64,000 bases of DNA from NCBI RefSeq assembly GCF_024502345.1, contig NZ_JALDNN010000001.1. The stretch is one strand, 5' to 3'. The position numbers and the translations under genes were made by a program. Positions 4,249 to 29,510 of this stretch are shown in pieces (position 1 is the stretch's first letter; each line of letters begins with the position of its first letter). Source of the stretch: Escherichia coli (GTDB lineage Bacteria; Pseudomonadota; Gammaproteobacteria; Enterobacterales; Enterobacteriaceae). Below the pieces are notes generated by a model that saw only the letters and a list, made by a program, of their open reading frames with translations, did not search any database and was not told where the DNA came from.

Positions 4249-4962
4249 ATGACGCTGATAACACAAGAAAACGAACATGACAGACTGGCAACCCGCCTTT
4301 CCATCATCCTGAGCCGTTTGTTTCAGGGTGAAAAGCTGCATATCGGGACGCTGGCAGAAGAATTTGGAGTGACGACGCGAACGCTGCGACGGGATTTCAA
4401 CGTCCGTCTGACCTACCTTGATATTGAACAGAGCAACGGCGTGTATCAGCTTGCCTCACATTACTTTCGTCGCCGCACGGAACGGGATATGAAGATACTG
4501 GCGAGGTTGCTGCATCTTGACCGTCTGTTACCCGCGATGGATGCCAAACTACTGAGCCTGATGCTTGACGGGGAACGTCCCTCGCCATACAGGATTATGC
4601 TACCGGAGCCGCGCCAGAAACCCACCCTTTTCGGTGATTTCAGCAGACTGACGCTCGCCATACTTAACCAGACCCAGGTGCGTATCAGAACCGACGAAAA
4701 CGTCAGCCATACCGTTCATCCCTACCGTCTGCTTTGCAGCCATGCGGAGTGGTTTCTTGCCGGATGTACGTCATCGGGCGTGTTCGTTATTTCCCTGTCC
4801 CGAATCAGGCTGGTTGAGGTATTACCGGATACAACGTTTGAGATCGATAACACACTCATTTCGCTGATTGAACAGTCTGACTTTATGGAAGCCTTACCCC
4901 ACATGAACATTATTCATCAGATAATGCATTACGGGAGTAAACAGACGAATAATCGTAATTAA
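4249..4962 (+). CDS. HTH plus WYL-domain transcriptional regulator (YfjR/YafY-like)
   Basis: N-terminus DRLATRLSIILSRLFQGEKLHIGTLAEEFGVTTRTLRRDF is a typical YafY-type HTH. Clear paralogue of the 47188-47916 product. Confidence 0.75.
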   Translation: MTLITQENEHDRLATRLSIILSRLFQGEKLHIGTLAEEFGVTTRTLRRDFNVRLTYLDIEQSNGVYQLASHYFRRRTERDMKILARLLHLDRLLPAMDAKLLSLMLDGERPSPYRIMLPEPRQKPTLFGDFSRLTLAILNQTQVRIRTDENVSHTVHPYRLLCSHAEWFLAGCTSSGVFVISLSRIRLVEVLPDTTFEIDNTLISLIEQSDFMEALPHMNIIHQIMHYGSKQTNNRN

Positions 4963-5002
4963 AATCACAACATATTATTAGTGATGATTAAATCACATTA
5001 AC

Positions 5003-5332
5003 ATGATAAGTGAGAAAGTTATGATTATCGATAAAGAATACGCACTTGTAAATGCAACAGCAAGACTTAACACTGACCTGAGGGATTATGAATATGAAAT
5101 AAACAACGCCGCCATCATAACATTTGGCAATGACCTCATTGAGGTAATCGTATATCAGTTCAGCTTTGTCATCAGCATCAGGGCAGAGGGTGAAAAAATA
5201 AAGCACGGCCTACTTGTTAACTTCGGTAAAAATATAGCAAGACAGGTTTCATCACTTTGTGCATCCGCAATGCGAGTCTACCCGAATGAAAAACACAAAC
5301 CGAGCCGTCAGCTTTTCCATTGCATAAATTAG
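5003..5332 (+). CDS. hypothetical protein (109 aa), AT-rich
   Basis: ORF-track ORF only, lying between the WYL regulator and the DUF262/DUF1524 gene. Confidence 0.3.
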   Translation: MISEKVMIIDKEYALVNATARLNTDLRDYEYEINNAAIITFGNDLIEVIVYQFSFVISIRAEGEKIKHGLLVNFGKNIARQVSSLCASAMRVYPNEKHKPSRQLFHCIN

Positions 5333-5393
5333 TTTGTGCAAAGACTGTACTACCGACACGCAATAAATTAAAATAGGCCAGCTAATATAACAT

Positions 5394-7271
5394 ATGAGGT
5401 TTATGATGGCTGGCCAGTATGAAAAAGCAATAACGATAAAACAAGCGATAGATTCAATTAATTTACGCCACTATCTTCTGCCTGCAATTCAGAGGAAGTT
5501 CGTCTGGAGCAGCAGTCAAATATGTTTGCTGTTTGATTCCATCATGCGAGACTACCCGATAAACTCTTTCATGATGTGGGATATCCGTAGTGCCAGTATT
5601 AAAAATGATTACAAATTCTATGAATTCCTGAAAGAATACTGTCAGCGATTTAATGAAGAAAACCCCTGCGTAGCAACAAATGCTGGATTTCATGATTTCA
5701 AGGCGGTGATTGATGGTCAGCAGCGTCTCACATCATTATATATTGGATTGTGTGGAACGTATGCGTATAAACAGCCCCGGGTGTGGTGGCCTTCGGCACA
5801 GGATGATCGCATCCTGCCGCCCAGAAAGCTTTACGTCGATTTAACAGCGCCACTTAATTCAGACGATGAGCTCATGATGAAGTATAACTTCAGGTTCCTG
5901 ACCGACAAGCAATACGCTGATTCACTTACAGACAACAAGCATCACTGGTTCTGCCTGCACGAAATATTCAAATACGAGCAACATGATTCGCCTGATGATA
6001 TTTTATTTAACGTTGTCGTACCAGAACTCGAAAAAAGAGGACTCATTTCCAGTGAATTTTCCAGAAAAACATTACTGAGACTTTATACAAAAATAAGAAC
6101 TGAGAACATCATCCACTACTTCAATGAGAGTAGTCAGGATATTGACCATGTGCTGGATGTTTTCATACGCACGAACAGCGGGGGGACAAAACTTGAGTTC
6201 TCCGACTTACTGATGTCAATAGCGGTAGCGCACTGGCAGGGTGATTTCAGAAGAGAACTGGATGAACTGACAAAAAACATTTATCAGAATAATGAAATGG
6301 GGTTTTATATTGAAAGAGACTGGTTCTTAAAAACCAGCCTGATGCTTATTGACTCTGACGTCCGGTTCAAAGTAAAAAACTTCACTTCAGAGGAGGTCGG
6401 TAAGATACAACAACAATGGTCTGAAATAAAATCCTGCATCAAGGAGACTTTTATTCTTATCAGGCGATTCGGCATCAATCCACAGTCTTTGATATCTAAA
6501 AATGCAGTCATTCCTGTGGTCTACTGGCTTTACAAAAAGCAAACCAGTGGACATCCATTATATACAACGATTAACCTCCTGAATAAAAACCACAATGAAC
6601 GCTCAGTAATTAGCCAGTGGTTTTACATGGTACTTCTGAAAGGGATCTTTGGAAGCCAGGCAGATGCGCTACTCACGAGTATCAGAGATGTAATGAAAAA
6701 TAGTCTTTCAGATATTCACTTTCCTCTTGAAAAGATTATTGACAGATATAAAGGCTCGAATAAAGACCTCAGATTTGACGACGAATACATCGAAAGCCTT
6801 CTCAATATCAGATATGGCGAAGGTCGTTGCCGCGCACTATTGCATCTTCTGTTCCCTGAAATGAATCCGACCGAGGTGTTTCATATTGATCACCTTCACC
6901 CAAGAAATCACTTCTCAAAGAAATATCTTGAAAAATTAGATTATGTTGCGAACTCACCAGAGAACCTCAGCTTTTATGAAAACCCGGAACACTGGGACAC
7001 CATACCTAATCTTCATTTACTGAATCATTCTCAGAATATAAGTAAACAGGATACTTCCCTGAAACAATGGCTATCTCAGCCATCAAACAACTATTCGCCA
7101 TCAATGCTGTTAGTTTCAGATGAAAATATTGAGTTCAGTCGCTTCCCGGAATTCTACAATGAACGAAGAAACGCCCTGAAGCAAAGACTACTGAATCGGG
7201 TATTTCTTACAACAAAAATAGATTCATCACCATCCACAATCGATACGGATGAAGAAATTCTCACCGACTGA
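5394..7271 (+). CDS. GmrSD-like DUF262/DUF1524 protein (putative Type IV modification-dependent nuclease)
   Basis: The N-terminal DUF262 hallmark DGQQRLTS is present. The C-terminus has a His-Me finger-like HIDHLHPRNHF...NLHLLNHSQNISK, as in DUF1524. Confidence 0.75.
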   Translation: MRFMMAGQYEKAITIKQAIDSINLRHYLLPAIQRKFVWSSSQICLLFDSIMRDYPINSFMMWDIRSASIKNDYKFYEFLKEYCQRFNEENPCVATNAGFHDFKAVIDGQQRLTSLYIGLCGTYAYKQPRVWWPSAQDDRILPPRKLYVDLTAPLNSDDELMMKYNFRFLTDKQYADSLTDNKHHWFCLHEIFKYEQHDSPDDILFNVVVPELEKRGLISSEFSRKTLLRLYTKIRTENIIHYFNESSQDIDHVLDVFIRTNSGGTKLEFSDLLMSIAVAHWQGDFRRELDELTKNIYQNNEMGFYIERDWFLKTSLMLIDSDVRFKVKNFTSEEVGKIQQQWSEIKSCIKETFILIRRFGINPQSLISKNAVIPVVYWLYKKQTSGHPLYTTINLLNKNHNERSVISQWFYMVLLKGIFGSQADALLTSIRDVMKNSLSDIHFPLEKIIDRYKGSNKDLRFDDEYIESLLNIRYGEGRCRALLHLLFPEMNPTEVFHIDHLHPRNHFSKKYLEKLDYVANSPENLSFYENPEHWDTIPNLHLLNHSQNISKQDTSLKQWLSQPSNNYSPSMLLVSDENIEFSRFPEFYNERRNALKQRLLNRVFLTTKIDSSPSTIDTDEEILTD

Positions 7272-7474
7272 ACGTTCAGCCCCGATAGTATTGGGGCTTC
7301 AGTATTTATCATCAGCGCAACGTTTCTACTGGCCTGGCTGAAAGAGCATTGGCTACACAACCGGGCAAACGAACTCTCAGTGCAACGTATGACATACAAA
7401 GCCTGTCATCAATATGAAATTGCGATAAAATCGGGCCAATAACAGTACTTAAGAATCATACAACAGGATACAAA

Positions 7475-9031
7475 ATGACAAGCCTTCAGCAGCGTGCAGA
7501 GCTACACCGTCAAATCTGGGCCATTGCCAATGATGTCAGAGGCTCCGTAGATGGGTGGGATTTTAAACAGTATGTACTCGGTGCACTTTTCTACCGCTTC
7601 ATCAGTGAGAATTTTTCCAGCTACATGGAAGCAGGGGATGAGAGCATACATTATGCAGCACTTGATGACAGCATCATTACCGATGACATCAAAGACGATG
7701 CCATCAGGACTAAAGGCTATTTCATCTACCCGAGCCAGCTGTTCTGCAACGTTGCCGCTAAAGCGAACACCAACGACAGGCTGAATGCTGATTTAAACAG
7801 TATCTTCGTCGCTATAGAAAGCTCTGCCTACGGCTACCCGTCAGAGGCCGACATCAAAGGCCTGTTCGCCGATTTCGATACGACCAGCAATCGACTGGGG
7901 AACACAGTTAAAGACAAAAACAGCCGTCTTGCCGCGGTTCTGAAAGGGGTTGAAGGGTTAAAACTTGGTGACTTCAACGAACATCAGATTGACCTGTTCG
8001 GTGATGCCTATGAGTTCCTGATTTCTAACTATGCCGCAAATGCCGGTAAGTCAGGCGGTGAGTTCTTTACACCGCAGCACGTCTCCAAGCTGATTGCACA
8101 ACTGGCTATGCACGGGCAGACCAGCGTTAACAAAATCTACGACCCGGCAGCGGGTTCCGGCTCACTGTTGTTGCAGGCGAAAAAACAGTTTGATAACCAC
8201 ATCATCGAAGAAGGCTTTTTCGGTCAGGAAATCAACCATACGACCTATAACCTGGCGCGTATGAACATGTTTTTGCACAATATCAACTACGACAAGTTTG
8301 ATATCAAGCTGGGTAATACACTGACTGAGCCGCACTTCAGAGATGAAAAACCGTTTGACGCCATCGTATCTAATCCACCGTATTCGGTGAAATGGATTGG
8401 CAGCGATGACCCGACGCTGATTAACGATGAACGTTTTGCCCCGGCTGGCGTTCTGGCCCCCAAATCCAAAGCTGACTTTGCGTTTGTATTACATGCACTG
8501 AACTATCTTTCTGCCAAAGGTCGTGCTGCGATTGTCTGCTTCCCGGGTATTTTTTACCGTGGCGGCGCAGAGCAGAAAATCCGTCAATATCTGGTCGACA
8601 ATAACTATGTCGAAACCGTGATTTCACTGGCACCGAACCTGTTCTTTGGCACCACCATTGCCGTCAATATTCTGGTGCTGTCTAAACATAAAACGGATAC
8701 CAAAGTTCAGTTTATTGATGCCAGCGAATTATTCAAAAAAGAGACTAACAACAATATCCTGACCGATGCCCATATCGAACAGATTATGCAGGTATTTGCC
8801 AGCAAGGAAGATGTTGCTCATCTGGCGAAATCTGTCGCGTTTGAGACCGTTGTCGCTAATGACTATAACCTGTCGGTGAGCTGCTATGTAGAAGCGAAAG
8901 ATAACCGCGAAATTATCAATATTGCTGAGCTAAATGCAGAGCTTAAAACTACGGTTAGCAAAATCGACCAGTTGCGTAAAGATATTGATGCGATTGTGGC
9001 TGAAATTGAAGGCTGCGAGGTGCAGAAATGA
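7475..9031 (+). CDS. hsdM: Type I (family IC) restriction-modification methyltransferase subunit
   Basis: Near-identical, by recall, to EcoR124I HsdM ([15 protein letters not shown]...). Motifs [10 protein letters not shown] and NPPY are present. Confidence 0.95.
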
Positions 9032-10200
9032 GCGAGTTGAGTTATCTGGAAAAATTGCTGGATGGGGTTGAGGTTGAGTGGAAATCATTGGGAGATGTTG
9101 TAAATTTTCAGCGCGGAAGGCGGCTCGTAAAATCTCAGTTAGAAACCAGAGGTAAATATGCGGTTTACCAAAACAGCATGACACCACTCGGTTACTATCA
9201 TGAGTATAATGTCGCAGCTCAATCTTCGTTCATTATCTGTGCGGGTGCAGCCGGTGAAATTGGTTATAGCGAAAATGAATTTTGGGCTGCCGACGATGTT
9301 CATTTCGCAATCACACCAGAATATATAAATGACAGGTTTTTGTTTCATTTTTTGTTGACGCAAAAGAATAAAATTTCAGGACAAGTACGCCGTGCCAGTA
9401 TTCCGCGTCTCTCAAAGTCAGTAATTGAAAAACTTGAATTCCCCATCCCCTGCCCGGATAATCCGGAAAAGTCCCTTGCCATCCAGTCTGAAATCGTTCG
9501 GATTCTGGATAAATTTACTGCACTTACCGCTGAGCTTACCGCTGAGCTTAACATGCGTAAAAAACAGTACAACTACTATCGCGACCAGTTGCTGAGTTTT
9601 GATGAGGGTGAGGTTGAGTGGAAGGCTTTGGAGGAAGTCTCAACTTTTGCTAATGGAAAGGGGCATGAAAAAGACATATCAGAAGACGGTAAATATATTG
9701 TTGTAAACTCTAAGTTTATATCTACCAATGGCGAAGTCGCCAAGTTATCAAACAAACAGCTATGCCCTCTTTTTAAAGACGATATTCTTTTGGTTATGAG
9801 TGACCTGCCCAATGGCAAAGCACTTTCAAAAACATTTATTGTTGATGAAGATCATAAATACACTTTAAACCAACGTATTGGTGGAATTACAGTAAAAAAC
9901 AGTAATGAATTACTCCCTAAGTTTTTGCACTATTTTTTAAATAGAACCCCGCAATTGCTGAAACATGACAATGGTGTTGATCAAACAAATTTGCGTAAAG
10001 GTCAAATACTTGAAGTAAAAATACCAATAATTTCACTCATCAAACAAGTTCAGATCGTTGAAACTCTTGATAAATTCGATACTTACACTAAGTCGATTTC
10101 AGAAGGCCTCCCGCGCGAAATCGAGCTGCGCCATAAACAGTACGAGTACTATCGTGATTTATTGTTCAGCTTCCCGAGACCAGAAACCGCCAGCAACTGA
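9028..10200 (+). CDS. hsdS: Type IC specificity subunit
   Basis: 4-nt overlap with hsdM. Conserved IC regions are present ([34 protein letters not shown]... and [22 protein letters not shown]), with two variable TRDs. Confidence 0.95.
9523..9550 (+). repeat. 12-bp tandem repeat CTTACCGCTGAG x2 (plus a 4-nt partial) encoding TAEL-TAEL in the hsdS central spacer
   Basis: Read directly: 9523-9534 and 9535-9546 are identical. Confidence 0.95.
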
Positions 10201-10316
10201 CGGACCATTGATACCGGCAGGGTTTGTTCTCACCCGCCCGGTATCAGGCTTTAAGAATGCCGGAAGATGCTTCTGATACCCTTCCGGAATTTGCCAGATG
10301 ACGCACAGGATGCACC

Positions 10317-13300
10317 ATGACACAACAGATACACACCATTGCTGAATCCAATAACTTTATCGTCCTTGATAAATACACCAAAGTTCTGGAGAACGGCGAC
10401 AGCTACCAGAGCGAATCGGATCTTGAGCGGGAACTGATTCAGGACCTTCTGAATCAGGGCTATGAATTTATATCCGTTAAGTCACCGACAGCGATGCTGG
10501 CGAATGCACGGGACCAGCTTCAGCATCTTAATGGTGTGGTGTTTAACGAAAGTGAATGGCGGCGCTTCGCAGAGCAGTATCTGGACAGCCCCAGTGACAG
10601 CAGCCTGGACAAAACTCGTAAAATCCATATCGACTATATCTGTGATTTCACGTTTGATGACGGTCGTCTGGAAAACATCTATCTGATAGATAAAAAGAAC
10701 CTGCTGCGCAATAAGGTGCAGGTCATTCAGCAGTTTGAACAGACCGGCTCACACGCTAACCGTTATGACGTCACCATTCTGGTTAACGGCCTGCCACTGG
10801 TGCAAATCGAACTCAAAAAGCGCGGCGTGGCTATTCGTGAAGCCTTTAACCAGATACACCGTTACAGCAAGGAAAGCTTTAACAGCGACAACTCCCTGTT
10901 TAAATACCTGCAACTGTTTGTGATATCTAACGGAACCGATACCCGGTACTTTGCCAGTACCACTAAGCGGGATAAAAACAGCTTTGATTTCACCATGAAC
11001 TGGGCGAAGTCGGATAACACTCTGATTAAGGACCTGAAGGACTTTACCGCCACCTTCTTCCAGAAACATACCCTGCTGAATGTTCTGTTTAATTACAGCG
11101 TGTTTGACAGCAGCCAGACTCTGCTCGTCATGCGCCCCTATCAGATTGCCGCCACTGAGCGAATCCTCTGGAAAATTAACAGCTCATTTAAAGCGAAGAA
11201 TTGGTCAAAACCCGAAAGCGGCGGGTTTATCTGGCATACCACCGGGTCAGGCAAAACCCTGACCAGTTTTAAGGCTGCACGACTGGCAACCGAACTGGAC
11301 TTTATAGACAAAGTCTTCTTCGTGGTCGACAGAAAAGACCTTGATTACCAGACAATGAAGGAGTATCAGCGCTTTTCTCCGGACAGCGTCAACGGTTCGG
11401 ATAATACAGCAGGCCTCAGAAGAAACCTGGATAAGGACGATAACAAAATCATCGTCACAACCATTCAGAAACTCAATAACCTGATGAAAGCCGAAGCTGA
11501 CCTGCCCGTCTATCAGCAGCAGGTAGTGTTTATCTTTGATGAGTGTCACCGCAGCCAGTTTGGTGAGGCCCAGAAAAACCTCAAAAAGAAATTCAGACGC
11601 TTTTATCAGTTTGGTTTTACCGGTACGCCTATTTTCCCGGAAAATGCACTGGGGGCAGAAACCACAACCAGCGTGTTCGGGCGTGAGTTACATTCTTACG
11701 TCATTACTGATGCGATTCGTGATGAAAAAGTACTGAAGTTTAAGGTGGACTATAACGATGTCCGCCCACAGTTTAAGTCTCTTGAAACGGAAACAGACGA
11801 GAAAAAACTCAGCGCGGCTGAAAACCAACAGGCATTTTTGCACCCCCTGCGTATCCAGGAAATAACGCAATACATTCTCAATAACTTCCGGCAGAAAACA
11901 CACCGAACCTTCCCGGGAGCTAAGGGCTTTAACGCCATGTTAGCAGTTAGCAGCGTGGACGCGGCGAAAGCTTATTACACGACGTTTAAAATGCTACAGG
12001 AAGAAGCAGAGAAGAAATCTGGCAGCTATAAATGCCTTCGGGTGGCAACCATCTTCTCCTTTGCTGCAAATGAAGAGCAAAGCGCCATTGGTGATATTAC
12101 TGACGAAAGCTTTGATACCAGTGCAATGAACAGCAGCGCGAAGGAATTCCTGGATTCAGCCATTGATGACTATAACAATCACTTTAAAACCAATTTCAGC
12201 ACCGACAGTAACGGTTTCCAGAACTACTACCGCAATTTAGCTCAACGAGTGAAAAATCAGGATATTGACCTTCTCATCGTGGTGGGAATGTTCTTGACTG
12301 GCTTTGATGCCCCGACGCTTAACACTCTTTTCGTTGACAAAAACCTCCGTTATCACGGCCTGATGCAGGCATTTTCCCGCACAAACCGTATCTATGATGC
12401 CACCAAAACCTTCGGCAATATCGTGACTTTCAGGGATCTGGAGCGTCCGACCATTGATGCCATCACACTATTTGGCGACAAAAACACCAAGAATGTGGTG
12501 CTGGAAAAAAGCTACGAAGAGTACATGCAGGGCTTTACCGATGCGGCAACCGGTGAGGCTAAACGAGGTTTTATGGCTGTTGTTTCGGAGCTGGAGCAGC
12601 GCTTCCCTGACCCTGCCAGTATCGACAGTGAAAAAGAGAAAAAAGCCTTCGTCAAACTGTTTGGTGAATATCTGCGGGCAGAAAACATCCTGCAAAACTA
12701 TGATGAATTTGCCACGCTGAAAGCCCTGCAGAAGGTTGATATTAGTGACCCGGAAGCGGTAGAAACCTTTAAAGCAGAGCACTATGTGGATGATGAAAAA
12801 TTTGCTGAATTACAAACCATTCGTCTCCCGGCAGAACGTAAAGTTCAGGACTATCGCTCAGCATACAATGATATCCGGGACTGGCAGCGACGCGAAAAAG
12901 CATCAAACGACAGGGATAAATCAACCACAGACTGGGATGACGTGGTGTTTGAAATTGACCTGCTGAAGTCGCAGGAAATTAACCTGGATTACATCCTTGG
13001 TCTGATTTTCGACCACAATCGTCAGAAAAAAGGTAAAGAAGCCCTGACTGAAGAGGTCAGACGCTTAATCCGCTCAAGTCTGGGCAACCGTGCCAAAGAA
13101 GGTCTGATTGTTGACTTTATTCAGCAAACTAACCTTGATGACATGCCGGACAAGGCCAGTATCATTGATGCATTCTTTACCTATGCTCAGCGTGAACAGC
13201 AACGGGAAGCAGAGGCGTTGATTAAGGAAGAAAACCTCAATGAAGAGGCTGCAAGGCGCTATATCCGCACATCACTAAAACGGGAGTATGCCACCGAAAA

Positions 13301-13433
13301 TGGGACGGAGCTAAATGAGACGCTACCAAAGCTCAGTCCGCTGAATCCTCAGTACAAAACGAAAAAGCAGACTGTATTCCAGAAAATTGGGGCATTTATC
13401 GAAAAATTTAAAGGGGTTGGAGGACACCTCTAG
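10317..13433 (+). CDS. hsdR: Type IC restriction endonuclease/helicase subunit
   Basis: 1038 aa with helicase motifs TGSGKT and DECHRSQ. Its length and sequence fit an EcoR124I-type HsdR. Confidence 0.95.
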
Positions 13434-13654
13434 ATGTCAGATAAAAGAACAATGCGCTACCGCAATTTATGGGTAAGATTGTATCTTTTAACCTGCATCA
13501 GACCTGTTATGATCGATGAGGCGCTGGTTAATGTTAATGCTAACTGGATGAGTTTTAATCGCTGATTCAGACAATTAGCGTCCAGAACTCACAGAAACCA
13601 GTGCTTGATTTTGGATGGTAAAGTGCTGAACGGACGTATCACAGGAGAATGCTT

Positions 13655-13993
13655 ATGAGCGTAACTATAAAAGACGATCGACTCCGTACCATCGCTACCT
13701 TTGACGGTAAAACCCTGAAAGACGACCGGCTCAGGACCATCGCAACGTTTGACGGTAAAACCCTGAAAGACGACCGGCTCAGAACCATCTCAACTTTTGA
13801 CGGTAAAACCCTGAAAGACGACCGACTCCGCACCATCGCTACCTTTGATGGCAAGACCCTGAAAGACGATCGACTCCGCACCATCGCAACATTTGATGGT
13901 AAAACACTTAAAGACGATCGACTCAGAACCATCGCGACAGTTAATGGTAATGTTAGTATTGTTGTTTTGGCGTTTGCTGCTCGGCTATTTTAG
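13655..13993 (+). CDS. repeat protein: six 16-aa KDDRLRTIATFDGKTL units plus a hydrophobic tail
   Basis: The ATG at 13655 follows AGGAG with a 7-nt spacer. The repeats are conserved at protein level despite synonymous DNA differences. Confidence 0.6.
   Translation: MSVTIKDDRLRTIATFDGKTLKDDRLRTIATFDGKTLKDDRLRTISTFDGKTLKDDRLRTIATFDGKTLKDDRLRTIATFDGKTLKDDRLRTIATVNGNVSIVVLAFAARLF
13670..13957 (+). repeat. 6 x 48-bp in-frame tandem repeat
   Basis: Read directly. The units differ mostly at third codon positions. Confidence 0.95.
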
Positions 13994-14270
13994 GGCTAAG
14001 AGCCTATCTCAACAGAGATTAATACTTTACCCAAAAGATATAATATCAGTATCTAAAAGCCTGCACCGTCTGATTTTTAGTCATTGAATCGCGAGAACGG
14101 GAGATAATTTCTCTTCTATGGGTATAGGCTCATAATGGTAGGATTCTGGTAGCTTCGAAACGCCGTATTTAAGCAATACTTAAGTCATGAAGAACCAAAC
14201 TTAAACATTTTTCTCAAGGTAAACCAGTAAAAAACTGTTAGTGCTGATGGATCGTTTGGGCTCTTTTAAA

Positions 14271-14319
14271 GGGATTGAAAATCCCCGTGTCCTTGGTTCG
14301 ATTCCGAGTCCGGGCACCA
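14271..14319 (+). tRNA. 3' fragment (49 nt) of tRNA-Phe(GAA): anticodon stem-loop to CCA. The 5' half is absent (att remnant, not a functional gene).
   Basis: GGGATTGAAAATCCCCGTGTCCTTGGTTCGATTCCGAGTCCGGGCACCA equals the pheV/pheU 3' part. The upstream 27 nt do not match GCCCGGATAGCTCAGTCGGTAGAGCAG. Confidence 0.9.
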
Positions 14320-14330
14320 AATTCATATCA

Positions 14331-14357
14331 ACGGACCTCCACGGAGGTCCGTTTTTC
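14331..14357 (+). terminator. rho-independent terminator after the tRNA fragment
   Basis: ACGGACCTCC..GGAGGTCCGT stem followed by TTTTCGTTT. Confidence 0.7.
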
Positions 14358-14516
14358 GTTTCAGAACGCCACAATTTAAGCGTTCTGCCTCCAAATCAAT
14401 TCTACCGAACTCAACCAGATTCCCCCCACATCAACCCCATTGTGTGGGTATAATTGCGGGTATACCCCAGTTCGACAGAATTTGTACCCTCTTTAACGCA
14501 TTCAGAAGGCTGAACT

Positions 14517-15782
14517 ATGGCACTGACTGACGCAAAAATCCGGGCTGCAAAGCCCACTGACAAGGCTTATAAACTCACTGACGGGGCCGGCATGTTCCTG
14601 CTGGTTCATCCTAATGGTTCCCGTTACTGGCGTCTCCGTTATCGTATTCTGGGTAAGGAGAAAACCCTGGCACTTGGTGTGTATCCGGAAGTTTCTCTCT
14701 CCGAAGCTCGTACAAAACGGGATGAGGCCCGAAAACTGATTTCGGAGGGGGTTGACCCTTGCGAACAGAAAAGAGCTAAAAAAGTAGTCCCTGATTTACA
14801 ACTCTCTTTTGAACATATTGCACGACGCTGGCATGCCAGTAATAAACAATGGGCACAATCACACAGCGATAAAGTACTCAAAAGCCTCGAGACACACGTT
14901 TTCCCCTTTATCGGCAACCGGGATATCACAACACTCAGTACCCCGGACCTGCTTATCCCTGTTCGTGCTGCAGAAGCTAAACAAATTTATGAAATCGCCA
15001 GTCGTCTGCAGCAAAGAATATCTGCTGTAATGCGTTATGCCGTACAGTCTGGCATCATCAGATATAACCCGGCTCTGGATATGGCTGGTGCATTGACCAC
15101 GGTAAAACGCCAGCATCGCCCTGCTCTGGATCTTTCACGCCTGCCTGAACTTCTGTCGCGTATTGACGGTTATAAAGGCCAGCCTGTCACCCGACTGGCA
15201 GTTATGCTGAATTTACTGGTTTTTATTCGTTCCAGTGAACTCAGATATGCCCGCTGGTCTGAAATTGATATTGACAATGCCATGTGGACTATTCCAGCCG
15301 AACGCGAACCTCTGCCAGGCGTAAAATTTTCATACCGGGGCTCCAAGATGCGAACACCACATCTTGTGCCACTCAGCCAACAGGCTGTAGCCATACTGGC
15401 AGAACTTCAGACATGGGCAGGTGAAAATGGTCTGATCTTTACGGGAGCACATGACCCACGTAAACCAATCAGTGAAAACACCGTAAATAAAGCCCTGAGG
15501 GTTATGGGGTATGACACAACCCAGGATGTCTGTGGTCATGGATTCCGGGCGATGGCATGTAGTGCATTAATAGAATCAGGTTTGTGGTCCCGCGATGCTG
15601 TGGAACGCCAGATGAGCCATCAGGAGCGTAATGGTGTACGTGCTGCGTATATCCATAAAGCCGAACATCTGGAAGAACGTCGACTTATGCTACAGTGGTG
15701 GGCCGATTTTCTGGATGCAAACAGAGAAAGATTTATCAGTCCATTTGAATATGCAAAGATTAATAATCCATTAAAACAATAA
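14517..15782 (+). CDS. int: P4-type tyrosine integrase (tRNA-Phe island integrase)
   Basis: N-terminus MALTDAKIRAAKPTDKAYKLTDGAGMFLLVHPNGSRYWRLRY is typical. The C-terminal catalytic region contains HGFR...Y. Confidence 0.9.
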   Translation: MALTDAKIRAAKPTDKAYKLTDGAGMFLLVHPNGSRYWRLRYRILGKEKTLALGVYPEVSLSEARTKRDEARKLISEGVDPCEQKRAKKVVPDLQLSFEHIARRWHASNKQWAQSHSDKVLKSLETHVFPFIGNRDITTLSTPDLLIPVRAAEAKQIYEIASRLQQRISAVMRYAVQSGIIRYNPALDMAGALTTVKRQHRPALDLSRLPELLSRIDGYKGQPVTRLAVMLNLLVFIRSSELRYARWSEIDIDNAMWTIPAEREPLPGVKFSYRGSKMRTPHLVPLSQQAVAILAELQTWAGENGLIFTGAHDPRKPISENTVNKALRVMGYDTTQDVCGHGFRAMACSALIESGLWSRDAVERQMSHQERNGVRAAYIHKAEHLEERRLMLQWWADFLDANRERFISPFEYAKINNPLKQ

Positions 15783-16103: not shown

Positions 16104-17603
16104 TTACCTGTGGTCCGGAAGAATAAGTGGCTGCGGTTTCAGACTGTCTGCCGGCACATTTTTCTCTCCGTTAAAAACCATAACGGGTTCATTATCTTCG
16201 TCTGTCAGCGGATTGAATGGCGGTATATTTTCGGTACGAATACCGGTCAGCCACTGAAAAATGCCTGCGAAATTACGGGCACTGATTTTCCTGCTGACGG
16301 ACTGATGAGACGTGATGTCACTGGCGGTAATAATCAGGGGAACGCTGTAGCCCCCCTGCACATGACCATCATGATGAACAGGATTAGCACTGTCGCTGAC
16401 CGACAGCCCATGGTCAGAAAAGTAAAGCATTGCAAAGTGACGGGAATGCCGGCGAAGGATACCATCAAGCTGATCGAGAAAGTTATCCAGTTTACTGATG
16501 CTGGCGAGGTAACAGGCAATCTTTCGGGGATACTGCTCCAGGTAATAATTCGGCCAGGAGTTAAGTCGGTCACACGGATTCGGATGAGAGCCAATCATGT
16601 GCAGGAAAATCACCTTCGGCGAGGATTTATCCGCCAGCGCACGTTCTGTTTCCTGTAACAACAACATGTCATCCGTTTTACGGGAAGCGAAGCTGCCTTT
16701 CTTGAGGAAAACGGTATGCTCCGCATCAGAAGCAATAACAGAGATGCGTGTGTCATGCTCTCCCAGTTTTCCCTGATTGGATATCCACCATGTGCTGTAT
16801 CCTGCTTTTGCTGCCAGCGCCACCACGTTGTTGCCGGAGTCAGGGTTCTGCTCATAGTCATAAATCAGTGTCCGGCTCAGGGAAGGTACGGTACTGGCTG
16901 CTGCCGATGTATAGCCGTCAATAAATAAACCGGGAGCCGTATTCAGCCATGGTGTGGTTGGCACGGGATAGCCATATACCGACATATAATCCCTGCGCAC
17001 ACTCTCACCAGTAACGATAACAATCGTGTCATACAACGGTGTTCCCGGCAGGATTTTCCAGTTGTCAGCCCCGTGCTGACTCAGTTGTTTATAACGCTGC
17101 ATTTCACGCAATGTGTCAGTTGTTCCCACAACAATTCCTTTAACCATCCGCAACGGCCAGCTGTTTACAGAGCATAATACGAACAGCAGCAGTGCCAGCC
17201 AGTTACGGTGACCGCGGTGGTGTGTCCGCCAGAAAATCACCATGAATACCAGAATCGCGGCACTGACCAGAAAATGATAAACAGGAATCATCCCGGTAAA
17301 CTCTGCAGCCTCATCAGCCGTGGTCTGCAGCAACGCGACAATAAAACTGTTGTTGATTTTACCGTACGTCATACCCGCAGGCGCATACAGTGCACAACAG
17401 AACAGAAATAACAGCGTTGTAATGGATGTGAGGGTATTTCTGTGTGCAAGGAGAAGAAGGAGAAACAGAAGCAGCACATTTCCTGTGGCATTCTTCTCAG
17501 TGTATCCGCATGCAATTGTGATTATCACAGAAATAACAAAAAAGAATAAAAACAATAAAATCCGGGGTGTGTCGCCCGGACAAAACAGTTTTCTGATATT
17601 CAT
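16104..17603 (-). CDS. phosphoethanolamine transferase family protein (sulfatase domain, YhbX/EptA-like)
   Basis: Multi-TM N-terminus, then VTGESVRRDYMSVYGY and LHMIGSHPNP motifs typical of PEA transferases. Confidence 0.7.
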   Translation of the reverse strand: MNIRKLFCPGDTPRILLFLFFFVISVIITIACGYTEKNATGNVLLLFLLLLLAHRNTLTSITTLLFLFCCALYAPAGMTYGKINNSFIVALLQTTADEAAEFTGMIPVYHFLVSAAILVFMVIFWRTHHRGHRNWLALLLFVLCSVNSWPLRMVKGIVVGTTDTLREMQRYKQLSQHGADNWKILPGTPLYDTIVIVTGESVRRDYMSVYGYPVPTTPWLNTAPGLFIDGYTSAAASTVPSLSRTLIYDYEQNPDSGNNVVALAAKAGYSTWWISNQGKLGEHDTRISVIASDAEHTVFLKKGSFASRKTDDMLLLQETERALADKSSPKVIFLHMIGSHPNPCDRLNSWPNYYLEQYPRKIACYLASISKLDNFLDQLDGILRRHSRHFAMLYFSDHGLSVSDSANPVHHDGHVQGGYSVPLIITASDITSHQSVSRKISARNFAGIFQWLTGIRTENIPPFNPLTDEDNEPVMVFNGEKNVPADSLKPQPLILPDHR

Positions 17604-17682
17604 CGGAGTATATCGACAACATTATTATGAAGAGAACAGGATAATAAAAATCAGAAATTATCTGTAAAACAGATAACAGACA

Positions 17683-17720
17683 ACCCTGCAGTATAATTAC
17701 TGCAGGGTGTTTCCTTTTAA
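17683..17720 (-). terminator. hairpin between the OMP gene and the transferase gene
   Basis: 9-bp perfect stem ACCCTGCAG / CTGCAGGGT with T-rich flanks. Confidence 0.45.
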
Positions 17721-17762
17721 TTACAGAAGATAAGTAATTATTATCTTTCAGGAGCAGTTTCG

Positions 17763-18503
17763 TCAGAAGTTATAAGTCACACCAAGCATGATGTCATGAC
17801 TTTTAACATCAACCTCTGATTTATATTTATCGCCCCACTCATCCTTGTAACTCACACTGCTGTCACCTGCATCAATATAGCGATAGCTGAGGTCAAGAGC
17901 GATATCCGGGGTTACGTCATAACGGACACCAGCCCCAAGGCTCCATGCAAAGTTGTCAGCAGAGTCTGAGTGTGACAACGACTCACGCCCACTGTACCCG
18001 TACCCGTAATCCCAAGTACTGATACCAGTTGTTTTCTGATGAATTCTGGCGTAACCAATCCCTGCGGATACCCATGGTGTGAATGCACTGTCGTTCCGGA
18101 AGTCATAGTACGTATTCAGCATCAGAGTGTTGACTGACACTTCATTCTTCAGGTCATCACGCCAGTAACCACCTGACCAGCTGTCTTTATCTACGTTATA
18201 CTTCGAATCAGCTTTTCCACGCGCGTAAAACTCCAGTTCTGTACGAACCGGAATACTGAACTGCGGATAAAAATCATAACCGGCCGCAATACCGCCACTG
18301 AATACCGTATCATGGTCATCGCCGCCTTTATACTTTGACGTTTCTTCCTCATCTCCTGACAGGAAACGCTGGTCTGAAAGTGACACCACAGAGGCACCGG
18401 CTTTACCGGTCAGATAAAAACCGCTTTTACCTTCCTCAGCACCTGCATTTGCTGCAAATACACAGGCTGCGGCCACCACTGAAACAGCAAAAACCTTTTT
18501 CAT
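17763..18503 (-). CDS. hra: Hra/Hek/Tia-family outer-membrane beta-barrel adhesin/invasin
   Basis: Signal peptide MKKVFAVSVVAAACVFAANAGA, GFYLTGKAGASVVSLSDQRF, and a C-terminal DIMLGVTYNF ending in Phe. Matches my recall of Hra1/Hek. Confidence 0.75.
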   Translation of the reverse strand: MKKVFAVSVVAAACVFAANAGAEEGKSGFYLTGKAGASVVSLSDQRFLSGDEEETSKYKGGDDHDTVFSGGIAAGYDFYPQFSIPVRTELEFYARGKADSKYNVDKDSWSGGYWRDDLKNEVSVNTLMLNTYYDFRNDSAFTPWVSAGIGYARIHQKTTGISTWDYGYGYSGRESLSHSDSADNFAWSLGAGVRYDVTPDIALDLSYRYIDAGDSSVSYKDEWGDKYKSEVDVKSHDIMLGVTYNF

Positions 18504-19445: not shown

Positions 19446-19709
19446 ATGAAGAAGCGTTTTTCCGACGAACAGATCATATGTATTCTCCGCGAGGCCGAAG
19501 CTGGCGTTTCTGCCCGTGAGCTCTGCCGTAAGCACGCCATTTCCGACGCCACCTTTTACACATGGCGTAAGAAGTATGGCGGTATGGAGGTGCCTGAGGT
19601 TAAGCGCCTGAAGTCGCTTGAGGAAGAGAACGCCAGACTCAAGAAGCTGCTTGCCGAAGCCATGCTGGATAAAGAGGCGCTTCAGGTGGCTCTTGGGCGA
19701 AAGTACTGA
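19446..19709 (+). CDS. IS3-family transposase OrfA (HTH)
   Basis: [46 protein letters not shown] is a typical IS407-group OrfA. Confidence 0.9.
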
Positions 19710-19732
19710 CGACAGACCAGAAGCGGGAAGCC

Positions 19733-20566
19733 GTGATGTTGATGTGTGATGCGACCGGTCTGTCGCAACGTCGTGCCTGCAGGCTTACAGGTTTATCCCT
19801 GTCGACCTGCCGCTATGAGGCTCACCGTCCGGCTGCTGATGCGCATTTATCAGGGCGCATCACTGAGCTGGCACTGGAGCGCAGGCGTTTTGGCTACCGT
19901 CGTATTTGGCAGTTGCTGCGCCGTGAAGGGCTTCATGTTAATCATAAGCGCGTGTACCGGCTTTATCACCTCAGTGGCCTGAGCGTAAAACGCAGAAGAC
20001 GTCGTAAAGGGCTGGCAACAGAACGTCTGCCGCTGCTCCGTCCGGCGGCGCCCAATCTGACCTGGTCGATGGATTTCGTCATGGACGCACTTTCCACCGG
20101 TCGCAGGATCAAGTGTCTTACCTGCGTCGATGATTTCACAAAGGAATGCCTGACGGTCACTGTTGCCTTTGGGATTTCAGGCGTTCAGGTCACGCGTATT
20201 CTGGACAGCATTGCACTGTTTCGAGGCTATCCGGCGACGATAAGAACTGACCAGGGGCCGGAGTTCACTTGCCGTGCACTGGATCAATGGGCCTTTGAGC
20301 ATGGTGTTGAGTTGCGCTTAATCCAGCCGGGCAAGCCAACGCAGAACGGATTTATTGAGAGCTTTAACGGACGATTTCGCGATGAATGTTTGAATGAGCA
20401 CTGGTTCAGCGATATCGTTCATGCCAGGAAAATTATTAATGACTGGCGGCAGGATTATAACGAATGCCGCCCGCACTCCACGCTGAATTATCAGACACCG
20501 TCTGAATTTGCAGCGGGCTGGAGAAAGGGTCATTCTGAGAATGAAGATTCCGACGTTACTAACTGA
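19733..20566 (+). CDS. IS3-family transposase OrfB (DDE), normally made as an OrfAB fusion by -1 frameshift near 19697-19703
   Basis: DDE region with TDQGPEF. The orfB frame is open upstream of 19733 and joins orfA if CGAAAG is read in the -1 frame. Confidence 0.85.
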
Positions 20567-20812
20567 GTGTTGTATCTAATCGTGGGGGCAGGTCACTCGA
20601 CTTGGTTCCATTAAAAACCATGAAGTTGATATAGGGTCAAGATTTTATACGATATACACATCAAGCATCTTGCATGAGTCGCACTGACTGACCCGGGTTA
20701 GTTACCATCATATTCTTTATGGTTGAGACCATACGGAAATCAGTGAATTAAAAATATTTATTCATCCAAAACACAAATGGTTTTAAGAAAGCCTAATGCC
20801 CTTCTTGTAAAA

Positions 20813-21082
20813 TTATTCAAGATAGTCAAGTATGTTTTTTATATTGTCAATTAAGGCGACATGCAGGTCAGGGTCATCACATTCATCTGAATGGCAATAG
20901 GAAATATGTTGAAGTATAATTCTTTTTTTGAATTCACTAACTGTACACTCCAACTCATACACCGACCGTACGATATCAATACAAGGTTCATCATCGATTA
21001 AAAAATCCTGCATTTTATTATACTTATCAGTCAGATCTTCTATCATAGAAATTAATACGGGGTCATTAACTAACATTGGCAT
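20813..21082 (-). CDS. small acidic hypothetical protein (89 aa)
   Basis: ORF 20813-21232 trimmed to the ATG at 21082 after GAGGAG. Overlaps the AraC gene end by 17 nt. Confidence 0.4.
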   Translation of the reverse strand: MPMLVNDPVLISMIEDLTDKYNKMQDFLIDDEPCIDIVRSVYELECTVSEFKKRIILQHISYCHSDECDDPDLHVALIDNIKNILDYLE

Positions 21083-21470
21083 ATCTCTCCTCATAATCTG
21101 AAAGTAAAGATGGACACAGCGCTGATAAATTCCAATTCCCTTGCTTGCGGTACCGACCGGGAGGAAGATGAAACTTGTTTTTAAAAGCTCTCGTGAAAGT
21201 TTGTTGCGAATTAAAACCATACTGAAGTGCAATGTCTAGGACTGTTCTGGAAGTCAATTTCAGATCAATCGCAGCACATGATAATCGACGAGCACGAACA
21301 TATTCACCCAGCGCAACACCGGTCGTCTGTTTAAACAAACGTTGAAAATGCCATCGTGAATACCCAGACTTCTCAGCAATAAATTCTACTGGCAAGGTTG
21401 TATTCAATGAACTTTCAACCCACTGCAAAATATCTTTGACAACACTTTCAGAATATTTCCTGGTGTCCAT
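21066..21470 (-). CDS. small AraC-family regulator (MarA/SoxS/Rob-N-like, two HTH)
   Basis: IAEKSGYSRWHFQRLFKQTTG and ALQYGFNSQQTFTRAFKNKF are canonical AraC HTH pairs. Confidence 0.8.
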   Translation of the reverse strand: MDTRKYSESVVKDILQWVESSLNTTLPVEFIAEKSGYSRWHFQRLFKQTTGVALGEYVRARRLSCAAIDLKLTSRTVLDIALQYGFNSQQTFTRAFKNKFHLPPGRYRKQGNWNLSALCPSLLSDYEERYANVS

Positions 21471-21562
21471 TCTCTCCCCCCAAACCATATTCTATGAATA
21501 TATTCAAACCAGAATACGGTCTCTGAGTCTGTCATCCATGAAGAACTCAGGGACCCAACTCT

Positions 21563-24064
21563 TTATTTTCGTAATAACCTCAGGCCATTTGCCACAACCA
21601 GAAGACTGGCACCAACATCAGCAAATACAGCCATCCACATAGTTCCCATTCCCATGAGCGTGAGTACAAGGAATACGGCTTTAATACCTAGAGCGAGGCT
21701 GATATTTTGCACGAGTAAGCTGTACGTTTGTCGGGATAATTTTACAAAGGCTGGGATTTTACGCAGGTCATCATCCATTAAGGCTACATCTGCAGTTTCA
21801 ATCGCCGTATCAGTACCCATTGCGCCCATAGCAAAACCGATATCAGCTGCAGCCAGAGCCGGTGCATCATTGATACCATCACCAACCATCCCAGTGATTC
21901 CAATCCGTGAATGCTCTTCAACTGCACGATGTTTATCTTCTGGCAATTGATTCCCTCGAGCCTCATCGATTCCAACCTGAGATGCGATTGCTTTAGCTGT
22001 ATGTGGGTTATCACCAGTCAGCATAATAGTTTTAACGCCAAGTTCATGAAGTTGTTCAATCGCTTCACGGCTGCTGTTTTTAACAGTATCAGCAACAGCG
22101 AACAACCCAAGCACTTGCTTACCATCATTGAGTAAAATAACTGTTTTACCCTGGCTTTCCAGCCTTTGTACTGTTGCTTTAATCTCTGATGGACAATTAA
22201 AGTGTTCTTCAGTCAAACGCAGGTTACCAAGGTAAAAATCCTTACCTGTAATCGCGCCATGCACACCTCGCCCAACAATCGCTTCAAAGCTGTCAACATC
22301 CTGCTTTTTCAAATCAGCAGAAGCATTCACAATTGCCAGTGAAACAGGGTGATCAGAGTAACTAGCGAGACTAGCTGCAGTAGTACGAACTTCACGCTCG
22401 CTCCACCCATTGAATACCATTACGTCGGTTTGTACTGGTTTCCCATAGGTAATAGTTCCTGTTTTATCCAGCGCAAGGGCTTTTAGCTTACGTCCCTGCT
22501 CAAGATAAACACCGCCTTTAATGAGAATCCCTTTGCGAGCAGCTGCAGTAAGTCCACTAACAATCGTTACTGGCGTAGAAATAACCAGGGCACATGGACA
22601 CGCAATGACAAGCATAACTAAAGCTTTATAGATCCACTCCTGCCATGTTCCTGCCCCAAACAATGGTGGCAATACAGCAACCGCAACAGCAATACCCATA
22701 ACGACGGGGGTATAAATCTGGGAAAAGCGGTCAACAAAACGTTGTGTAGCTGCTTTGGCGCCTTGCGCCTGCTCAACGGCATGAATGATGCGAGCAAGGG
22801 TTGTATTATTTGCAGCTGCAGTGACTTTATATTCAAAAGAGCCTGACTGATTTATTGTTCCAGCAAATACAGCATCGCCCGCAATTTTATCGACAGGCAT
22901 ACTTTCACCTGTAATTGGAGCTTGGTTAATGGTGGTTTGGCCTTTGACGATTTCTCCGTCGAGACCAATTCGTTCACCTGGTTTTACCCTGACAATACTG
23001 CCCGGTTGTACGCTACTGGCGTCAACTTCCTGCCATGTTCCATCAGCTTGTTGGACCATTGCAGTTTCAGGAGTCAGGTTCATCAGGGAACCTATTGCAT
23101 TTCTGGCTCTATCAAGTGATTTGGCTTCTATCAGCTCGGCAATGGTGAATAACACCATAACCATCGCCGCTTCTGGCCACTGCCCAAGGACCAAAGCCCC
23201 AGTAACGGCAATACTCATTAGTGCATTGATATTCAAGTTGCCATTGCGAATCGAAATCCAACCTTTTTTGTAGGTTGTCAGACCACAAGAAAGCACTGCT
23301 ATCAAAGCCAACCCAGCTTCTAGCCAGTCAGGCATATCAGCCCAGTGCATCACTTCGGCTGCAAGAGCAGCTACGCCAGCAAGAGCTAATGGCCACCAGG
23401 GCTTTTTTTTCTCCTGGGTATTTTTCTTGCCGCTAGTATTATCAGAGACTTCTGGCGCGAATCCCAACGAGCGAATTGCAGCCATGATAGCTTCAAGCGA
23501 ATCCGGTGTATGGGTTACAGTCAAAACACGCTGCATCAGGTTGAAATCAAGCTCTTTAACAGCGCTCATTCCACCCAGTTTCTTTTTGATAAGATTTTCT
23601 TCAACAGGACAATCCATCTGCATAATGCGAATTTCTGTCCGTAATCCACCAGCCACAACCTGCGAGCCCCCTAGGCTACTCAATTGTTCTGGAGCAGCGG
23701 AGCAACAATCCCCCTCATGGCCGTGATCGTGGCCTTCATGAGAATGCTCTTGCGCGGCATGAGCATGGTTACATCCCTTATGATTATGCTCATCATGCGA
23801 ATGCCCTTCGCCGCCATGGCTATGGGCATCATGATTATGGCCTTCATGGTTATGGCCTTCATGGTTATGACCTTCATGGGAATGATCATCACTGCATTTC
23901 TTGTGATTATGAGCCTGCTGATCATGTGCATGATCATTTGCTTTATGTGATTCACCAGTATTCTTAACCCGGAGTCCTGTCCCTAAATTGAACGTTTCAC
24001 AGCAACTAGCCGCTTCGTCTCCTGCAGGGTTTTTGCTATTTTTTACACCACCACTCATTTTCAT
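21563..24064 (-). CDS. P1B-type heavy-metal ATPase, Zn/Cd/Pb class (ZntA/CadA-like) with a His-rich N-terminus
   Basis: CPC motif (ACPCALVISTP), [13 protein letters not shown], an MDCPVEE metal-binding domain and a long HxH-rich tract. Confidence 0.9.
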   Translation of the reverse strand: MKMSGGVKNSKNPAGDEAASCCETFNLGTGLRVKNTGESHKANDHAHDQQAHNHKKCSDDHSHEGHNHEGHNHEGHNHDAHSHGGEGHSHDEHNHKGCNHAHAAQEHSHEGHDHGHEGDCCSAAPEQLSSLGGSQVVAGGLRTEIRIMQMDCPVEENLIKKKLGGMSAVKELDFNLMQRVLTVTHTPDSLEAIMAAIRSLGFAPEVSDNTSGKKNTQEKKKPWWPLALAGVAALAAEVMHWADMPDWLEAGLALIAVLSCGLTTYKKGWISIRNGNLNINALMSIAVTGALVLGQWPEAAMVMVLFTIAELIEAKSLDRARNAIGSLMNLTPETAMVQQADGTWQEVDASSVQPGSIVRVKPGERIGLDGEIVKGQTTINQAPITGESMPVDKIAGDAVFAGTINQSGSFEYKVTAAANNTTLARIIHAVEQAQGAKAATQRFVDRFSQIYTPVVMGIAVAVAVLPPLFGAGTWQEWIYKALVMLVIACPCALVISTPVTIVSGLTAAARKGILIKGGVYLEQGRKLKALALDKTGTITYGKPVQTDVMVFNGWSEREVRTTAASLASYSDHPVSLAIVNASADLKKQDVDSFEAIVGRGVHGAITGKDFYLGNLRLTEEHFNCPSEIKATVQRLESQGKTVILLNDGKQVLGLFAVADTVKNSSREAIEQLHELGVKTIMLTGDNPHTAKAIASQVGIDEARGNQLPEDKHRAVEEHSRIGITGMVGDGINDAPALAAADIGFAMGAMGTDTAIETADVALMDDDLRKIPAFVKLSRQTYSLLVQNISLALGIKAVFLVLTLMGMGTMWMAVFADVGASLLVVANGLRLLRK
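23831..23875 (-). repeat. 3 x 15-bp tandem repeat encoding HEGHN units in the ATPase His-rich tract
   Basis: Read directly: ATGRTTATGRCCTTC x3 on the plus strand. Confidence 0.9.
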
Positions 24065-24090
24065 TGCCTCATCTGTTAACTATACTGACG

Positions 24091-24121
24091 ATTAAAGACC
24101 CTAATCTAACTAGAGGGTCAA
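24091..24121 (-). promoter_or_regulatory. MerR-type promoter/operator for the Zn/Cd/Pb ATPase
   Basis: The minus strand reads TTGACC-19 nt-TTTAAT. The dyad ACCCT-N11-AGGGT lies in the overlong spacer. Confidence 0.75.
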
Positions 24122-24139
24122 GCGCATAAGGGGGGAGGC

Positions 24140-29508: not shown

Positions 29509-29510
29509 TT

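Follow-up and report, generated by a model that had tools for sequence, protein, structure and literature searches.

The locus analysed here raises the question of why the 3' part of a tRNA-Phe gene, and not the whole gene, lies directly upstream of a P4-type integrase gene. Displaced tRNA fragments and tandem arrays of islands are textbook features, and the initial annotation had proposed that this fragment was left behind when a second element entered a tRNA-Phe gene already occupied by an integrase island. The window, which is the whole stretch of 64,000 nucleotides of Escherichia coli DNA that was analysed, contains the fragment at positions 14271-14319 on the + strand. The sequence of the fragment, gggattgaaaatccccgtgtccttggttcgattccgagtccgggcacca, is identical to nucleotides 28-76 of the 76-nt E. 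coli tRNA-Phe(GAA) gene at 49 of 49 positions. When tRNA-Phe is numbered with the anticodon stem at nucleotides 27-31 and 39-43 and the anticodon at nucleotides 34-36, the fragment extends from the second base of the 5' arm of the anticodon stem (G28) to CCA. The 27 nucleotides that precede it (14244-14270) match the 5' part of the tRNA at 4 of 27 positions, which is less than the random expectation. This result indicates that the fragment was described exactly in the initial annotation, both in its extent from the anticodon stem to CCA and in its coordinates, and that the 27 nucleotides before it are unrelated to the tRNA. ARAGORN detects no tRNA gene in the 64-kb window, and Rfam detects no tRNA in it at the gathering threshold. 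A 23-nt substring from the 3' part of the fragment occurs only once in the window, and the number expected from 100 shuffles is 0, even when three mismatches are allowed. A promoter scan detects no sigma-70-like site in the 320 nucleotides upstream of the fragment. When the RNA of the fragment is folded together with the flanking sequence, the terminator is evident, and the predicted pairing of the upstream island sequence with the 3' strand of the acceptor stem (z = -2.7) is probably fortuitous. The fragment is not a tRNA; its present role would be that of a substrate for precise excision of the defence island upstream of it. It also keeps the 3'-terminal target of intP4-type integrases, because the target and repeat of intP4 islands is of the type formed by its last 19-23 nucleotides (about 14297-14319). 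The fragment and the regions next to it are arranged as follows.

14135-14270, + strand: right-end (attR) arm of the upstream defence island, non-coding and abutting the core; conserved in 56 E. coli genomes
14271-14319, + strand: displaced 3' fragment of pheU, very probably the attR core of the upstream defence island; 49/49 identity, direct repeat of the intact tRNA in four homologous E. coli loci (L003, L004, L005 and L008)
14320-14516, + strand: pheU 3' flank as in genomes without the defence island, consisting of the terminator and the leader of the P4-type integrase gene; identity to the K-12 flank, terminator scan
14517-15782, + strand: P4-type tyrosine integrase of 421 amino acids with Arm-DNA-bind_3, Phage_int_M and Phage_integrase domains, first gene of the right-hand island, probably the older one

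The sequence 3' of the fragment identifies the tRNA gene from which the fragment is derived. Positions 14320-14452 (133 nt) are 91.7% identical to the downstream flank of pheU in K-12, which identifies the locus as pheU (dicD-pheU-cadC). The K-12 gene has dicD (yjdC) on one side and cadC on the other, and 3' of it is yjdQ, which is what is left of a decayed integrase gene. In the junction alignment, the sequence 3' of the fragment, aattcatat[a/c]aacggacctccacggaggtccgttttt, is the one found 3' of pheU in K-12, and the terminator scan indicates that the native pheU terminator is retained 3' of the fragment, with a stem-loop at 14330-14353 and a T-run. Genomes with the dicD-pheU-int arrangement share 99.9% identity with the window over this flank. 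The ORF of the integrase begins at 14517, 197 nucleotides after CCA, and its product is 54.9% identical to the integrase of phage P4 (X51522/NC_001609) over 97% of the length (E = 1e-152), so that the label "P4-type", which the initial annotation had already used for this gene, is justified.

The region upstream of the fragment is the right-hand part of a defence island. The features of this region are as follows.

1-468, no strand assigned: end of an IS903-family element, inserted in the island 5' of hypA; terminal inverted repeat at 450-468, IS903B annotated in relatives
469-14134, + strand: right-hand cargo part of the defence island; ORFs, Pfam, NCBIfam, PADLOC and RefSeq annotation of homologous loci
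800-1153, + strand: hypA, ORF
1146-1577, + strand: hypothetical protein (hyp), ORF
1624-2052, + strand: DUF2787 protein, ORF with domain match
3397-4146, + strand: JukA-like DUF3944 protein, ORF with domain match
4249-4962, + strand: WYL/HTH regulator, ORF with domain match
5394-7271, + strand: GmrSD (PADLOC family HEC-05), ORF with PADLOC match
7475-9031, + strand: hsdM, ORF
9028-10200, + strand: hsdS, ORF
10317-13433, + strand: hsdR of the EcoR124 family, Type IC, with an EcoR124_C domain
13649-13993, + strand: 5-fold beta-flower protein, ORF

Among the E. coli genomes, 56 have the right arm, and conservation within it is nested: the last 63-136 nucleotides next to the core are kept and the cargo upstream of them varies. 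The base at the junction of the right arm is identical throughout the genomes compared. The genes for the JukA-like DUF3944 protein, the WYL regulator, a small hypothetical protein and the HEC-05 GmrSD protein (3397-7271) all lie 5' of the Type IC restriction-modification genes, and their order resembles that of WYL/BrxR-regulated defence modules. Within E. coli, the island part of the window is matched at 95.9% identity at best. The exact product of hypA has no entry on record, and a 143-aa protein neighbouring hypA is recorded only from contigs that lack this insertion of IS903. Other E. coli islands are homologous to the window from position 469 or 758 onward, and int(-), one of the two tyrosine recombinase genes found in the islands of relatives, is located to the left of the insertion point of IS903. 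The island had been assigned to positions 1-14270 in the initial annotation. The right boundary at 14270 is retained, but the island is larger than this segment, and extends a further 7-16 kb leftward in relatives. Because the island is broken by IS903 (1-468), loss or rearrangement of its left part is possible in this genome; if this part is present in the source genome, it is located beyond IS903 and outside the window.

The left end of the island was therefore examined in the homologous loci of E. coli S1-CAM-01-C (L003), G3/10 (L004), ET151 (L005) and GPT21-003_1 (L008). In all four of them, an intact, co-oriented tRNA-Phe gene (76/76) is located by dicD, 12-23 kb to the left of the fragment. 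The order at the left end of L003, L004 and L005 is dicD, the intact tRNA-Phe gene, a conserved non-coding arm, a variable cargo slot and int(+), which encodes a 394-aa tyrosine integrase on the + strand. It is followed by a module on the - strand encoding a 118-aa Arm-domain protein, a DUF927 protein and a 392-aa tyrosine recombinase, int(-), and then by hypA, hyp, DUF2787, LRAT, DeoR, hyp, DUF3944, HTH, hyp, GmrSD, hsdM, hsdS, hsdR, beta-flower and the 49-nt fragment. Window positions 469-14270 correspond to the part of this island from hypA onward. The locus of GPT21-003_1 is a shorter deletion derivative, which contains only a truncated int(+) and lacks hsdM and hsdS. The defence island of the relatives thus contains two full-length tyrosine recombinases, int(+) and int(-), both with a Phage_integrase catalytic domain. 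The junction alignment indicates that the intact tRNA on the left is followed by island DNA with a terminator hairpin of its own, atattcataaggcctcgctgcaaagcggggcttttt. The left arm begins with atattcataaggcctcgctg, and comparison with K-12 indicates that it is the native flank of neither pheV nor pheU. A regenerated tRNA gene on the left, combined with a K-12-type flank after the fragment on the right, is the signature of an element that carries the 3' two-thirds of the tRNA in its attP. No third tRNA-Phe fragment is found next to int(+) inside the left island in L003 and L004, suggesting that the island is a single unit between the tRNA gene and the 49-nt fragment. The initial annotation had predicted that the gene was restored at the far end and that an intact tRNA-Phe gene and a second integrase would be found there. 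The far end of the source genome is outside the window, and in the homologous loci the intact gene with the island's own terminator is indeed present in L003, L004, L005 and L008, and the intact gene together with a second integrase in L003, L004 and L005.

These results suggest that the fragment is the attR core of a tRNA-Phe-specific integrative defence island of about 21-23 kb, which entered pheU after the P4-type island. We estimate the probability of this reading to be roughly 0.85. According to this mechanism, the attP of the island would consist of tRNA-Phe nucleotides 28-76 followed by its own terminator. The tyrosine integrase encoded at the left end, most likely int(+), would have recombined the 49-nt block with chromosomal pheU, with a crossover that, judging from comparable elements, would lie within or close to the anticodon loop. 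The chromosomal nucleotides 1-27 would then have been joined to the 3' part provided by the island, so that a functional pheU was regenerated next to dicD, and the original nucleotides 28-76 would have been displaced to the right end of the island, where they would still be linked to the native terminator and the P4-type integrase gene. The outcome would be a tandem array of two islands in the order dicD, pheU, defence island, 49-nt fragment and P4-type int island. That the anticodon loop was the place of the crossover is inferred from how far the identity block extends; all copies of tRNA-Phe examined are identical, so that the crossover is not marked by a polymorphism within the 49 bp. If the island is excised as this mechanism predicts, the attP junction of the circle would read gggctcttttaaa + 49 bp + atattcataaggcc, and the repaired chromosomal junction would read dicD-pheU-aattcatatcaacggacc-int.

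The occupancy of pheU was compared among E. coli genomes by using an island-free junction, which was built in silico from the dicD flank, an intact tRNA-Phe gene and window positions 14320-15300. The island-free dicD-pheU-int junction is detected in 3159 of the 5426 genomes (58%), with up to 99.9% identity. The left arm of the defence island is detected in about 173 of the 5426 complete genomes (~3%). Four states of the locus are distinguished. In the first, pheU is followed by the decayed integrase remnant yjdQ, as in K-12. In the second, it is followed by an intact P4-type integrase gene, as in the 3159 genomes mentioned above. The third contains the defence island and the integrase remnant (L003, L005 and L008). 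The fourth contains the defence island and an intact integrase gene, as in the window, L001, L002 and L004, and is represented by at least 21 records among the matches listed. The tDNA is thus precisely polymorphic for the presence and absence of the island, and genomes carrying only one of the two islands, a comparison that the initial annotation had recommended, are available for both: the P4-type integrase gene is alone at pheU in the 3159 genomes, and the defence island is accompanied only by the remnant in L003, L005 and L008. Two types of right arm, which are ~80-86% identical to each other, and two types of downstream flank, which are ~91% identical and then unrelated, occur in all four combinations, and these are joined at the same base, G28, in every case.

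Right arm A with the flank containing an intact P4-type integrase gene: window, L001 and L004
Right arm A with the K-12-like remnant flank: L003
Right arm B with the flank containing an intact P4-type integrase gene: L002
Right arm B with the K-12-like remnant flank: L005 and L008

These four combinations bear on the possibility that the junction was formed by site-specific integration only once or a few times elsewhere, and that the array or the island was then gained at this locus by homologous recombination in the flanks. The islands of the window are IS-rich mosaics, and a block bearing the junction is present at a second locus in strain 30EVA2, as expected if such transfer occurs. In this strain (L001), the order IS1-truncated hsdR, beta-flower, fragment, P4-type int, phosphoethanolamine transferase and outer membrane protein at 1.60 Mb recurs at 3.91 Mb, where the second copy is located inside a mosaic island with O-antigen ABC-transporter genes. 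This second copy indicates that the fragment-int junction has been moved as a block by other recombination. Transfer of this kind, however, leaves the identity of the fragment unchanged and still requires a site-specific origin of the junction, and the meeting of four arm-flank combinations at the core is explained more simply by repeated integration or by recombination at the core. We therefore regard acquisition of the window array by homologous recombination as rather unlikely.

The order of arrival was also considered in reverse, with the defence island entering first and the P4-type island integrating later into the 3' end of the displaced fragment instead of the regenerated gene. The full 19-23-nt target of intP4 islands is available in the fragment, and the opposite stacking does occur at tRNA-Phe, namely in E. 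coli O103:H2 12009. However, the P4-type integrase gene follows an intact pheU in 58% of the genomes and a remnant of it follows pheU in K-12, whereas the defence island is present in ~3%. In addition, an identical arm (136/136) is located on two anciently diverged flanks, and genomes that carry only the P4-type island match the window at 99.9% over the flank 3' of the fragment. Because the flanks that carry the identical arm are 9% diverged and then unalignable, the island is younger than these flanks. The reverse order is improbable for these reasons. The order in which the P4-type island came first and the defence island second, as the initial annotation had supposed, is favoured by the distribution of the two islands (3159 of 5426 genomes versus about 173), by the fossil integrase yjdQ in K-12, by the presence of one arm on diverged flanks and by the recent spread that the near identity of the defence island across genera implies, and is the most parsimonious one. 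Finally, the possibility that the 5' half of the tRNA gene was lost by a non-specific or IS-mediated (for example IS903) deletion, the event that the initial annotation had named as the one that would overturn its reading, and that the upstream segment is just adjacent DNA, is effectively refuted despite the many elements of the IS903, IS1 and IS3 families at and near the locus, because no IS end is located at the fragment (IS903 comes no closer than position 468, a distance of 13.8 kb), one and the same breakpoint, G28, in diverged backgrounds with ~80-86% identical arms is not what random or IS-mediated deletion would produce, a perfect 49-bp repeat lies within the intact tRNA gene at the other end in relatives, and the island provides a replacement terminator.

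Islands with intP4 at pheV, the sister gene of pheU, are reported to have direct repeats of 23 bp or 19 bp that correspond to the tRNA 3' end, such as TTCGATTCCGAGTCCGG-CACCA (PMC11537424). The published 19-23-bp 3' repeats of intP4 islands (PMC11537424) agree with the use of the extreme 3' end of the tRNA that the initial annotation had attributed to P4-type islands. A second tRNA-Phe 3' repeat, which would close the right-hand island, is not found in the window, including the 50 kb that follow the fragment, in searches with a 23-mer (up to 3 mismatches), with a 20-mer (up to 5 substitutions) and with up to 5 edits allowed. The right-hand island either extends beyond position 64000 or lacks an attR, as do 34% of the GI-pheV islands (PMC11537424). 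The cargo of this region is mosaic. A phosphoethanolamine transferase gene (EptA/CptA-like, weakly similar to MCR families) and a gene for an OmpA-like beta-barrel protein (16104-18503) directly follow the P4-type integrase gene, and the same pair follows the integrase gene in 30EVA2. A block of 12.8 kb (20596-33424) has a 100% match in two records of E. coli strain 44, which are 248-271 kb long. Genes for P-type heavy-metal ATPases are located in this block at 21563-24064 and 25160-27655, together with genes annotated as cueR, CDF and MFS, and the block is thus a metal-resistance module that was shared recently. Just before it (19676-19793) is an element of the IS3 family that has a frameshift signal of the IS1222 type. 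A group II intron is also present, with the Rfam Intron_gpII match at 33910-33996 (- strand) and a reverse transcriptase/maturase ORF at 34000-35523 (- strand). A second defence-like cluster (50676-61115, - strand) encodes ResIII/SNF2, N6_N4 DNA methyltransferase, AIPR, Abi_2 and SNF2-family helicase proteins, and is 99% identical to clusters in APEC O1:K1:H7 strains.

The defence island is not restricted to E. coli. Relatives of int(+) with 86-100% identity are found in Pseudocitrobacter, Enterobacter, Kluyvera, Buttiauxella, Citrobacter, Pseudescherichia, Mixta and Erwinia, and the full-length copies in other genera are 93-99% identical. An intact, co-oriented tRNA-Phe gene is located 2.5-8.8 kb upstream of int(+) in 8 of the 8 loci in which the fetched flank reaches the tRNA gene. 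The backbone of the island, consisting of int(+), hypA, DUF2787 and GmrSD, is 92-99% identical across genera, and this near identity suggests that the island has spread recently. The left arm is conserved over at least 230 nucleotides in 12 tRNA-Phe loci, namely four of E. coli and those of eight species of seven other genera (L003, L004 at 6449-6700, L005, L008, L010-L013, L016, L018, L024 and L025). It contains a tRNA terminator of its own and three to five CTACGGT repeats, the number of which differs by locus; these repeats are plausible candidates for arm-type binding sites of the integrase. Linkage of int(+) to tRNA-Phe and conservation of the island backbone and the left arm across genera suggest that int(+) is most likely the cognate integrase of the defence island. 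It has no close relative among phage integrases, with which it shares at most 31% identity. The P4-type integrase of the window, int(+) and int(-) all have the Arm-DNA-bind_3/Phage_int_M/Phage_integrase architecture and are 23-29% identical in pairs. The contrast between them is therefore one of integrase subfamilies, and not one between P4-like and non-P4-like domain organisations.

Other parts of the island vary. In the module of the Arm-domain fragment, DUF927 and int(-) (L010-L018 and L026), the DUF927 protein is 38-95% identical and int(-) 58-85% identical between genera, and the module may be exchangeable or under diversifying selection, as far as can be judged from these comparisons. 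Repeats that would bound the module as a nested element were looked for, and the matches obtained were short and no better than expected by chance. The DUF927 protein has a weak resemblance to the Cch helicase of SCC. The variable slot between the left arm and int(+) (L003, 223-1870; L004, 6449-10645; L005, 12050-15672; L027-L031, 1-4105) contains, depending on the genome, genes for a restriction endonuclease, ADH and LysR, for BCCT and DUF2254 proteins, for dynamin-like and AAA_15 proteins, or IS903 and a hypothetical gene. Cargo between attL and the integrase gene is in an unusual position. At positions 8978-9300 of the O103:H2 12009 locus (L007), a 22-nt tRNA-Phe 3' repeat closes an intP4 island with flu/yee modules, and is followed by the left arm of the defence island and then by LEE. 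This repeat is the same as that published for intP4 islands at pheV, and LEE has been located downstream of attR in this strain (PMC11537424). From this order, LEE would seem to adjoin, or to have arisen from, an element that shares its attachment system with the defence island. We tentatively consider that the upstream element belongs to a so far un-named family of tRNA-Phe-specific mobile defence islands, which is distributed across Enterobacterales and is characterized by the unusual layout and the link to LEE; this is a possibility of well below even odds. No paper naming such a family was found. If it exists, acquisition of LEE at tRNA-Phe would be tied to the same attachment system.

The analysis gives a border between the two pheU islands that is precise to the base pair, with the end of the defence island at 14270/14271 and the end of the tRNA-derived core at 14319/14320, and this border is useful for annotation, for delimitation of the islands and for the design of PCR that detects excision. 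It also indicates that the island with Type I restriction-modification and GmrSD genes is a discrete, site-specific mobile unit common to enterobacterial genera. The understanding of how islands integrate is unchanged, because the locus represents routine stacking of genomic islands.

An anticodon-centred ('A') attachment sublocation of tyrosine integrases was reportedly described by Williams in 2002. The block of identity between attL and attR of the defence island, nucleotides 28-76, is that of an anticodon-centred attachment site, but the presumed integrase keeps the Arm-DNA-bind_3 N-terminus that is typical of P4-like enzymes. Groups of integrases with an attB extending from the anticodon loop to CCA are known (bioRxiv 10.1101/2020.11.02.365908). 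In the tDNA islands of Islander (Hudson, Lau and Williams 2015, PMC4383910), the regenerated tDNA and the displaced fragment mark the ends of an island, and tandem arrays have been catalogued, with 125 tandems among 3919 islands. The pheU locus resembles these islands in its restored split tRNA, in the co-oriented 3' fragment at the far end and in the second integrase island. It differs from them in that the window shows only the fragment and the integrase of the second island: of the one fragment and one integrase per island by which Islander recognizes a tandem, the left island has its fragment in the window and its integrase in relatives, and the right island has its integrase in the window, in which its fragment is not found. 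The integrase gene at 14517 resembles those of intP4 islands at tRNA-Phe (GI-pheV, LEE/OI-122-type; PMC11537424) in that it is co-oriented with the tRNA sequence, lies immediately 3' of it and precedes an IS-rich mosaic cargo, but the site is pheU instead of pheV, the gene abuts a 49-nt fragment, and a right-end repeat of 19-23 bp is absent from the next 50 kb. The defence island resembles the mobile defence islands at E. coli hotspots (Hochhauser et al. 2023, PMC10121019), because anti-phage cargo is carried by an integrase element at a tRNA hotspot, and its cargo of Type I restriction-modification, GmrSD/HEC-05, JukA-like and WYL regulator genes is similar; the main text of that paper does not name pheU, dicD or cadC. 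The arrangement thus appears to be a standard tandem array of tDNA islands, of which the left one probably has an anticodon-centred attachment site and the right one is of the intP4 type.
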